A DNA stretch of 64,000 bases from assembly GCF_011745625.1 (NCBI RefSeq), contig NW_027191458.1:868001-932000 (forward strand). The letters run 5' to 3'. Of the stretch, positions 44,645 to 46,705 are shown piece after piece. Each line of letters starts with the position of its first letter. Within the stretch, counting starts at the first letter, position 1. A program made the position numbers and the translations under genes. The notes under the pieces are model-generated. The model saw only the letters and a program-made list of their open reading frames with translations, searched no databases and was not told the origin of the DNA. Source of the stretch: Cladosporium halotolerans (taxonomy: Eukaryota).

Positions 44645-46705
44645 ATGTCTGAAACCAAGACTTCGAGTCCTCCGGTCGAACGAGAGACCAATCTCGTCCC
44701 AGGCGAGGATGTCAAAGAATCAACGGTCGACGAGAAGGCATCTAACGGCAATCAATTGAAAGACAATGCCCATTTACCTAAGACGTCGACACGCGATTTG
44801 GTCAACCAAGACGAGGAGAAAGCCCTTCCCTCAATCGGGCAAACCGGCAAGGACACGACCGCTGTGATAGATACCGAGCACGATCCAAACGTGGTCGACT
44901 GGGATGGAGACGACGACCCAGACAACCCCTACAACTGGAGCAAAAAGAAGAAATGGATGAACATCGGTATCTTGTCTACCTTGACCTTACTGACTCCACT
45001 TGGATCCTCCTTCTTCGCTCCTGGTGTTCCACGAGTGATGGCGGACTTCAATTCGACTTCAGAGATCACGGCGACCTTTGTCGTCTCAGTGTAAGTCTAT
45101 TGGCATCCTATCGCAACTTAGCAGACGACTGACGCAGTCCAGATATATCCTTGGCTTTGCATGCGGCCCTCTCTTGATCGCACCACTCAGCGAACTCTAC
45201 GGACGACTGTACATCTACCACGCCTGCAATCTTGGCTACCTCGTCTTCACTATTGCCTGCGCTCTTGCTACTAACATGAACATGCTCATCGTCTTCCGCT
45301 TTTTTGCCGGCTGCTGGGGCGTTGCACCCGTCACAATCGGTGGTGGCACGGTTGCTGATCTCATGAAGCCTGAGGAGCGAGGGTTGGCCATGTCTCTTTG
45401 GGCTATGGGTGCGCTGTTTGGTCCTGTCATAGGGTAAGAGCTCTGATAAGTTCTCTTGTCAGAGTATTACTGACAACTTCTCAGTTCGTAATCACCCATC
45501 AGCTCTGTCTGACAAGGTCCCAAATCTGGCCCACACCACGGTCAAACACTAACCCTCCCCTCACAGGCCCCGTAGCAGGCGGCTTCCTCAGCGAAGCAGT
45601 CGGCTGGCGCTGGATCTTCTGGGTGCTCGCGATCGCCATCGCCGTCGTCTCCTTCACCGCCCTCTTCACCATCCACGAGACGTACGCGCCCGTCCTCCTG
45701 GCCCGCAAAACCGCCCGCCTGCGCAAAGAAATCTCCAACCCGCACCTCCGCTCCAAACTCGAGCAGGACCTCACCCCGCGCCAGATCTTCGTCCGCGCCA
45801 TCACCCGCCCCACGAAGCTCATGCTGCTCAGCCCCGTCTGCTCCCTCATGTCGATCTACATGGCCGTCGTCTACGGCATCCTCTACCTCCTCTTCACGAC
45901 CTTCACCTTCGTCTTCCAGCAGGCCTACGGCTTCAGCGAGTCCATCGTCGGCCTGACGTACATCGGGCTCGGCATCGGCAACTTCATCGGCCTCGCGGCG
46001 CTGGGCGCCAGCTCCGACCGCGTCATGAAGGCGCTGGCCGCGAAGCACAACGGCGGCAAGGCCAAGCCCGAGTACCGCCTGCCGCCGCTGATCTACGGCT
46101 CGCCGTTCATTCCCGTGGGACTGTTTATCTACGGCTGGACGGCGCAGAACAGCGACAGCGTGCACTGGGCTGTGCCGCTGTTTGGGACGCTGTTGGTGGG
46201 GATTGGGCTGATTGCGTGCTTTATGGCGATCAATACGTATCTGATCGATGCGTTTACGCTGTACGCTGCGAGCGCGATGGCGGCGAATACGATTTTGCGA
46301 TCGGTGGGAGTCACCTCCCTGGTCTGTCCGGAGATGCATTCGCTGACGTGAGAGCTTCCCGCAGATTCTGGGTGCGGTGTTTCCTCTGTTTGGACTGAAG
46401 ATGTACAACGCGCTTGGTTTGGTAAGTCGCCGCAGACAAACGACTCGAGAGGATATGGGAGCTGACAAAATCGCAGTATGTCTGCTCCCTCCCGTTTGGA
46501 CTTCGTGGATGTTATCCTTGAGTTGCAACGCCAGATCAAATATTCCAACTGCTTCAATTTGGAGAATGCTAATAATCATCTGTACAGGGGTTGGGGCAAC
46601 AGTCTCCTAGCATTCGTCAGCCTAGCTCTCTGCTCGGTACCGATTTTCTTCTACTATTACGGCGAGAGGCTGCGAACCAGCGAAAGATTCAAAGTCAAGT
46701 TCTAA
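44645..46705 (+). CDS. MFS drug:H+ antiporter-1 (DHA1, 12-TMS) containing two stwintrons
   Basis: [49 protein letters not shown], PEYRL and YNALGLGWGNSLL. Intervening sequences are 45091-45142, 45433-45566 (twin), 46304-46364 and 46421-46587 (twin). Confidence 0.93.
45433..45566 (+). other. Spliceosomal twin intron (stwintron) #1, [D1,2]/[A2,3]
   Basis: Structure G|GTAAGA..TACTGAC..TCAG|TTCGT..CACTAAC..ACAG. Internal intron 45434-45484 splits the external donor G-TTCGT. Confidence 0.85.
46421..46587 (+). other. Spliceosomal twin intron (stwintron) #2, [D1,2]/[A2,3]
   Basis: Structure G|GTAAGT..GCTGAC..GCAG|TATGT..GCTAAT..ACAG. Internal intron 46422-46476 splits the external donor G-TATGT. 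Confidence 0.88.

Follow-up and report, generated by a model that had tools for sequence, protein, structure and literature searches.

The question raised by this locus is how a 134-nt intervening sequence is removed precisely from a conserved glycine codon when none of its possible borders is a GT..AG pair. The sequence occupies positions 45433..45566 (+) of the analysed window, a 64,000-nt stretch of Cladosporium halotolerans DNA (contig NW_027191458.1), and interrupts a gene for a DHA1-type major facilitator superfamily (MFS) transporter, for which we built our own model of five exons and 548 residues (44645..46705, +). We propose, with a probability of roughly 80%, that this element of a Cladosporium-like Dothideomycete is a [D1,2] spliceosomal twin intron (stwintron), in which a complete U2 intron sits between nucleotides 1 and 2 of the donor of an outer intron. 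It would be a fresh example of a rare arrangement that is already described; the [D1,2] type has been published, including from a DHA1 gene.

Architecture of the 134-nt element

The element is of phase 1 and lies inside a Gly codon of the conserved GPxxGPxxGG motif, the motif of transmembrane segment 5 (TM5). Exon 2 (45143..45432, +) ends with GTC ATA G, which supplies base 1 of the split codon, and exon 3 (45567..46303, +) opens with GC CCC GTA, which completes the Gly and continues into PVAGG; from 45567 onwards the downstream exon reads GCCCCGTAG. After the upstream flank ATAGG (45429-45433), G45433 would serve as nucleotide 1 of the outer donor and is parted from nucleotide 2, T45485, by an internal U2-type intron of 51 nt (45434..45484). 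This internal intron is complete, with the donor GTAAGA (45434-45439), the branch element TACTGAC (45468-45474, branch A at 45473, 11 nt before the acceptor) and the acceptor CAG (45482-45484), and is predicted to be excised separately. The rest of the outer intron, 82 nt at 45485..45566 or 83 nt with G45433, begins with the donor remainder TTCGT (45485-45489) and carries the branch element CACTAAC (45547-45553, branch A 14 nt before CAG) and the acceptor CAG (45564-45566). Once the internal intron is gone, the outer intron is canonical (GTTCGT..CACTAAC..CAG, 83 nt). Both nested introns have the full U2 signal set with normal fungal spacing, and all letters and coordinates quoted in a preliminary description of this stretch are present in the window.

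A cut of 134 nt can be placed in four equivalent ways, with the ends AG..AC, GG..CA, GG..AG or GT..GG; GT..AG is found in 0/4. G stands at both exonic flanks (G45433 and G45567), and both are fixed by the protein because the site is the G|GN of a Gly codon. As G45567 follows the element, the mirror order is also open, and the element can be read as [A2,3] too, with a putative internal intron of 83 nt (GTTCGT..CAG, 45484..45566, +). The preliminary description had called this second route possible on account of the G on both sides, and going by the letters alone it is formally available.

The nested architecture is rare by chance. In order to count it, we used our own loose regular expression (regex) for the [D1,2] architecture, built on the general fungal splice consensus. 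Within the 64-kb window, both strands included, it matches only two distinct sites, 45433-45566 and 46421-46587 (hereafter sites 1 and 2), and both belong to the same gene. When the window was shuffled 100 times with dinucleotides preserved, the regex matched 0.24 sites on average, and two or more sites in 3/100 shuffles. When the outer donor, branch point and acceptor of site 1 were held fixed and the interior was shuffled, the internal branch..YAG|TNNG arrangement was recreated in 37 of 5000 trials; at site 2 the corresponding figure is 34/5000.

Removal of the element restores the conserved protein

If 45434-45566 (133 nt) is removed in one step, the coding sequence is 1648 nt long, which is not a multiple of three, and the correct protein is lost after GPVIG. 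Taking out 45433-45566 (134 nt) instead gives the open 548-residue MFS protein. The frameshift that the preliminary description had attributed to conventional splicing is thus borne out, and so is its claim that excision of the 51-nt intron builds the donor GTTCGT from G45433 and that a second excision restores the frame, in so far as the letters and the open 548-residue frame can speak to it.

The precise removal of 134 nt is supported by three independent lines that agree: the homologue alignment, the Pfam positions and spliced contigs. In the alignment, the 14-residue core around GPxxGPxxGG has the same length in 115 of 120 homologues (116 of 121 rows when our own model is included). The five exceptional homologues have core lengths of 0, 9, 10, 20 and 31, and look truncated or mis-modelled. 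Odd insertions are also seen beside the motif in P0054, P0069 and P0087, probably unrecognised or mis-modelled introns in other species. With respect to the MFS_1 profile, the exon 2 translation covers positions 41-136 and the exon 3 translation (from 45569) covers 138-339, leaving exactly one position for the split Gly.

For the third line, we compared 44600-46750 with the contigs of four public runs whose RNA nature is a guess. One contig each in X2, X3 and X6, which come from three studies, crosses all four introns of the model and skips exactly 52, 134, 61 and 167 nt. The X2 and X6 contigs end within about 50 nt of the borders of the compared segment and are transcript-like. As they share one set of differences from the window (~98% identity), all three represent one close relative seen three times. 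In each, the 134-nt skip is reported as 45430->45565, which is the same removal as 45433-45566 because AGG stands on both sides, so the whole element is absent at the predicted fusion site. The mature junction foreseen in the preliminary description, GTC ATA GGC CCC GTA, accordingly agrees with all three lines. The contigs of the four runs hold no joints of 133 or 146 nt. Nor do they hold joints of 51 or 83 nt, which carries no weight either way, as assembled contigs drop rare forms.

Proposed splicing path

We infer a two-step path and its order in this organism as follows. In the first reaction, the spliceosome would use GTAAGA (45434), a strong donor, together with the closest branch point and acceptor, TACTGAC..CAG (ending at 45484), and take out 51 nt. 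This would join G45433 to T45485 and create the donor GTTCGT, such that the intermediate would read ...ATAGGTTCGT... A second standard reaction would then pair GTTCGT with CACTAAC..CAG (ending at 45566) and remove the remaining 83 nt, giving ...GTC ATA G|GC CCC GTA... with the GPxxGPxxGG motif intact. In the mirror, [A2,3] order, 45484-45566 (83 nt) would leave first, followed by a 51-nt intron running from GTAAGA to TCA plus G45567, and the mRNA would be the same. If the outermost sites were used directly (133 nt), the frame would be shifted.

By the rules of U1 pairing, the contexts are better in the [D1,2] order (AGG|GUAAGA, then UAG|GUUCGU). For this reason the [D1,2] order would be expected to dominate.

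A comparable principle is known from recursive, or ratchet-point, splicing, in which long animal introns are removed stepwise and the first reaction regenerates a 5′ splice site. As in that process, the first reaction proposed here would regenerate the 5′ site used by the second. Unlike in ratchet-point splicing, the G of the regenerated donor comes from upstream of the first donor, the introns removed in both steps would be short and fungal, and the reading frame can be kept only by the two-step path.

Alternative explanations

Several observations weigh against the [D1,2] interpretation. The rebuilt donor GTTCGT departs at position 3 from the usual donor consensus, GTRNGT. The spliced contigs come from a ~98% identical relative that is not demonstrably the strain of the window, and the relative's intron itself is unseen; the runs X2, X3 and X6 are only guessed to be RNA; and the contigs confirm the mature junction but, strictly, not the two-step path. 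The 134-nt joint is reported with 'both = 0', whereas by the window's letters the cut may slide by 3; the third letter of the relative's Ile codon is unsure, and a substitution there would explain the value. Finally, two of the 12 close homologous loci described below (L001 and L003) have nothing at site 1. They are probably transcripts, and hence uninformative, because they are intron-free along the whole match.

The frameshift caused by one-step splicing could have a simpler cause, namely one G too many in the GGG at 45432-45434, a possible sequencing error that the preliminary description had itself raised. The true sequence would then be an ordinary 133-nt intron with coincidental internal signals. 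A homopolymer of three Gs does lie exactly at the exon-intron border, RNA-like contigs would look alike if the true intron were canonical, and run X19, which holds all sampled words, may be the window's own source and hence no independent check. We looked at the GGG in a relative: a 186-nt contig of a ~91% identical organism (run X1, record 3) spans the whole element (45406-45591) with 16 substitutions and four indels, all of them inside 45444-45481 and summing to zero. None falls at the GGG, so the extra G is not peculiar to this assembly. An error is quite unlikely for other reasons as well, i.e. the low rate at which shuffling recreates the internal arrangement, the nested signals at site 2, where the same +1 correction falls at a GG that is no homopolymer, and the like elements of relatives, which behave in the same way in 11/11 cases (see below). 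The same frame problem might instead mark a pseudogene, whose frame was broken when 1 nt was inserted at the intron border. We regard this as highly improbable, given that the gene is otherwise intact across 548 codons, that both of its frame problems fall exactly at nested-intron architectures, and that the 98% relative expresses the correctly joined mRNA.

The final 134-nt joint is the only one of its kind in the contigs, which would also be expected if 134 nt left in a single non-canonical event with GG..AG or GT..GG ends and without an intermediate. The predicted RNA fold of the element, which puts its 5′ end near the outer branch region (z = -2.41; 3/200 shuffles fold as well), would suit such an event. 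However, we know of no U2 or U12 class with these boundaries, and a complete canonical intron stands exactly where the two-step path needs one. In analogous published cases, moreover, intermediates have been isolated (PMC5587772), and a one-step event is therefore very unlikely. A conventional intron, absent from the preliminary description, is in fact on offer: the in-frame donor GTCCTG (45421..45426) would define a 146-nt intron with GT..AG ends and a protein lacking PVIG. Its chances are close to negligible, for no 146-nt joint occurs in the four runs and the three spliced contigs all show 134, the Pfam profile has room for exactly one residue between the exons, and the four residues are kept in 115/120 homologues. 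Because the length of the core is kept to that extent, the shorter protein is not what the family encodes, and we rejected this candidate as the main form in favour of the [D1,2] stwintron.

Origin on a host intron

A scan of metagenome contigs with exon 3 gave 80 loci, 12 of which are 69-89% identical over exon 3. In 10 of these 12 (L002, L005, L073, L052, L053, L054, L055, L056, L058 and L074), a plain phase-1 intron of 61-92 nt with canonical G|GT..AG|GT borders is found at the exact site, with the letters ...G|GT...CTRAC...AG|GT CCC...; the ten are not independent sequences, as L055 equals L056 there and L054 and L058 are nearly identical. Another 29 loci, mostly ≤57% identical, have no intron at site 1. 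Towards its 3′ end, where the branch element and acceptor lie, the window's outer intron aligns with the host intron found in L002, L005 and L073, and the 5′ 50-odd nt of the window element have no counterpart there.

The phase of the host intron (G|GT) is that of the [D1,2] reading, so the internal intron was gained in the donor of a pre-existing intron. In evolutionary terms, the twin intron was built on an ordinary host intron, an older phase-1 intron that is still present in relatives and whose donor received the second one. The gain is recent, because the host intron is still canonical in the 69-89% identical relatives and nested in the window lineage. Stwintrons belong to the few settings that make it possible to reconstruct how a spliceosomal intron was born, and at site 1 the states before and after the gain are both available.

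With regard to the source of the inserted piece, GTAATC at 45488 weakly resembles the host donor GTAACT of L002 and L073. A 55-nt piece (the intron plus TTCG) could have been inserted into the host intron, which is speculation from this weak likeness. Copies of the internal or outer intron were sought by blastn-short in the window and the 80 loci, and only chance matches of 11-14 nt were returned. The local-alignment z of site 1 against 10 other stwintron candidates is ≤2.7 in all cases. Within 45441-45522 of the element lie a hairpin of 10 nt (45441-50/45455-64), three direct repeats of 14 nt (CTGAYAA..., 79% identity) and a perfect inverted repeat of 9 nt (45455-63/45508-16), which has one arm in the internal intron and the other in the outer intron. 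We considered an origin of the internal intron by local duplication and rejected it, as these repeats and the hairpin are too weak a basis.

One further X1 contig has a joint 45439->45562 that skips 122, with the letters between not known; this single contig is probably from a relative with a diverged intron at site 1. In a group that is 51-59% identical, canonical introns are seen by eye 7 nt upstream of site 1 in phase 2, in a Val codon (L006 and L010), and 3 nt upstream in phase 1, in an Ile codon (L015, L016, L017 and L019). Counting these more distant homologues, there are three intron positions within 7 nt of the GPxxGPxxGG motif. The closest clade has two extra canonical introns (L002:263-345 and 371-431; L005:2181-2350) at two places where exon 2 of the window runs on uninterrupted, AGCW|GVAP and TIGG|GTVA. 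Intron turnover in this transporter gene is brisk.

Further stwintron positions in the gene lineage

Site 2 is a candidate second stwintron of the same gene (46421..46587, +; 167 nt), readable as [D1,2]/[A2,3] and identified by the regex and by the 167-nt skip in X2, X3 and X6. It consists of G46421, a 55-nt intron at 46422-46476 (GTAAGT..GCTGAC..CGCAG) and then TATGTC..GCTAAT..TACAG, and needs the same +1 logic as site 1, at a plain GG rather than a 3-base homopolymer. At this site, L053, L054 and L074 have a plain phase-0 intron of 53-55 nt that equals the 5′ member of the window's pair. Relative to the [D1,2] reading, that canonical intron is displaced by 1 nt, a relation that has been termed a single-nucleotide intron shift. 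In L002, the letters at site 2 resemble those of a stwintron (G|GTGAGT..GCTAAC..CCAG|TACGTC), but its contig stops there.

The same regex, run over both strands of the 80 loci (338 kb), gives 12 matches, all on the gene strand and inside the MFS homologue, in loci about 70% identical to the window. These [D1,2]-type elements are L052:1599-1763 and 2013-2201; L053:657-827 and 1077-1296; L054:1078-1297; L055:3524-3739; L056:3055-3270; L058:2640-2855; L066:440-598; and, three in one gene, L074:2328-2497, 2645-2795 and 2898-3091. They fall at three positions, near residues 371, 429 and 459 of our model, where the window is intronless. Eleven candidates were tested, leaving out L056, which has the same lengths and junction letters as L055: two-step removal restores the conserved protein in 11/11 and one-step removal between the distal sites in 0/11. 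At the third of these further positions, L002 has a plain 102-nt phase-2 intron. Including the two of the window, the orthogroup has at least five stwintron positions.

Within site 2, the segment 46440-46490 is significantly similar to L053:1120-1160 and L052:2055-2095, which belong to elements at residue 459. Local alignment gives z = 12.4 with L053 and z = 9.8 with L052, vs. ≤0.9 with other stwintron candidates such as L074c, L066 and L053a, and the similarity is concentrated in ...GAGCTGACAAAATCGCAG|TATGTCT. A stwintron could have been copied from one position to another, or the likeness could stem from convergent splice signals.

A bolder possibility, which we offer tentatively, is that twin introns have been born repeatedly and recently in this DHA1 orthogroup, which would be a hot spot among Cladosporium-like Dothideomycetes. 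For each of the at least five positions, sister lineages would then have either a plain intron or none. The newcomer would lie in the host donor at site 1 and in the acceptor at site 2 and at the position labelled 'c', where the 5′ member would be the host. The likeness of site 2 to the relatives' 'c' elements, which stand at another position, hints at copying. If the hot spot were real, this single gene would supply dated states from before and after both kinds of stwintron birth and the 1-nt intron shift, and perhaps also from stwintron propagation outside the Xylariales.

Comparison with known systems

The closest precedent is the dhaoS stwintron, of the [D1,2] type in Aspergillus nidulans AN3270 and [D1,2]/[A2,3] with alternative splicing in Trichoderma reesei, whose intermediates were cloned and shown by RT-PCR (Fekete et al. 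2017, PMC5587772). The rule given there is that G at both exonic flanks of overlapping introns makes the element an [A2,3] stwintron as well. Like dhaoS, the window element lies in a DHA1 drug:H+ antiporter gene, has its outer donor split between nucleotides 1 and 2 and G on both flanks, would allow two alternative orders that yield the same mRNA, and interrupts a conserved peptide motif where automated models go wrong (PMC5587772). dhaoS is split in the Leu codon of WGPLSELY, whereas the window gene is continuous at PLSELY, in exon 2, and is split about 130 codons downstream; it is therefore not the dhaoS stwintron but a new site in another DHA1 gene, from a different, Dothideomycetes-like class. 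The two steps were shown for dhaoS by cloned intermediates, whereas here they are deduced from the letters, the frame and the mature junction.

The lipS [D1,2] and bioDA [D2,3] stwintrons occur at positions where other taxa have standard introns, and they have been argued to stem from host introns already in place, whose donors acquired an internal intron (Flipphi et al. 2017, PMC5639578). The window stwintron likewise occupies the position of a host intron, as seen in L002, L005 and L073. The lipS and bioDA stwintrons are old, class-wide and in other genes, whereas the one in the window appears confined to its near relatives, given that the plain intron is kept in the Cladosporium-like clade (74-89% identity). 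In the Hypoxylaceae, exact removal of [D1,2] stwintrons needs two consecutive standard U2 reactions, the distal sites give a +1 frameshift, and phase 1 is the commonest, at about 45% (Fekete et al. 2022, PMC9024468). The window element shares the type, the phase and the +1 frameshift from the distal sites (PMC9024468), but it lies on a host intron, in contrast to the seamless insertion into continuous exons described for the Hypoxylaceae. Unlike the sister stwintrons described there, the site 1 element has no sequence-similar copy in the window or the 80 loci. Introner-like elements of Cladosporium fulvum and other Dothideomycetes are reported as a further case of recent intron gain in the same fungal group; they exist as many near-identical copies, whereas the internal intron has no detectable copy in the window and the 80 loci.

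In the literature searched, which left subscription-only papers outside, no stwintron is reported from Cladosporium, and the two words co-occur only in a general review; no title or abstract found for stwintrons together with Dothideomycetes is about this gene. Standard gene callers cannot model such a site, and will produce either a frameshift or truncation or a model that uses the GTCCTG donor and deletes four residues of the TM5 motif.

The transporter gene and its surroundings

Apart from exons 2 and 3, the gene model has exon 1 at 44645-45090, exon 4 at 46365-46420 and exon 5 at 46588-46705, all on the forward strand. The intron at 46304-46364 (+; 61 nt) has the weak donor GTGGGA, and the neighbouring GTCACC at 46310 is unused as a donor, as judged from the 61-nt skip in three runs. 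The translations of exons 2 and 3 match MFS_1 (PF07690) with 56.3 and 62.9 bits, respectively, vs. a curated cut-off of 33.4. A homologue search with the exon 3 translation (n=876) gave as its top match a 553-residue protein of Cladosporium sp. with 85% identity across exon 3; next came numerous Dothideomycete proteins whose source names are efflux pumps or 'cercosporin MFS transporter CTB4'-like. Membership of the MFS transporters is shown by the Pfam match above the cut-off together with full-length alignment to fungal efflux pumps, and the DHA1 subfamily label is a probable one, taken from the source names and the motif. On the one side of the transporter where neighbouring open reading frames (ORFs) were examined, no hint of a secondary-metabolite cluster was seen; the ORF at 47120-47821 (-) matches RRS1, a ribosome biogenesis regulator (150.5 bits), and the ORF at 48174-48788 (+) gives a LURP-one-related match (68.6 bits).

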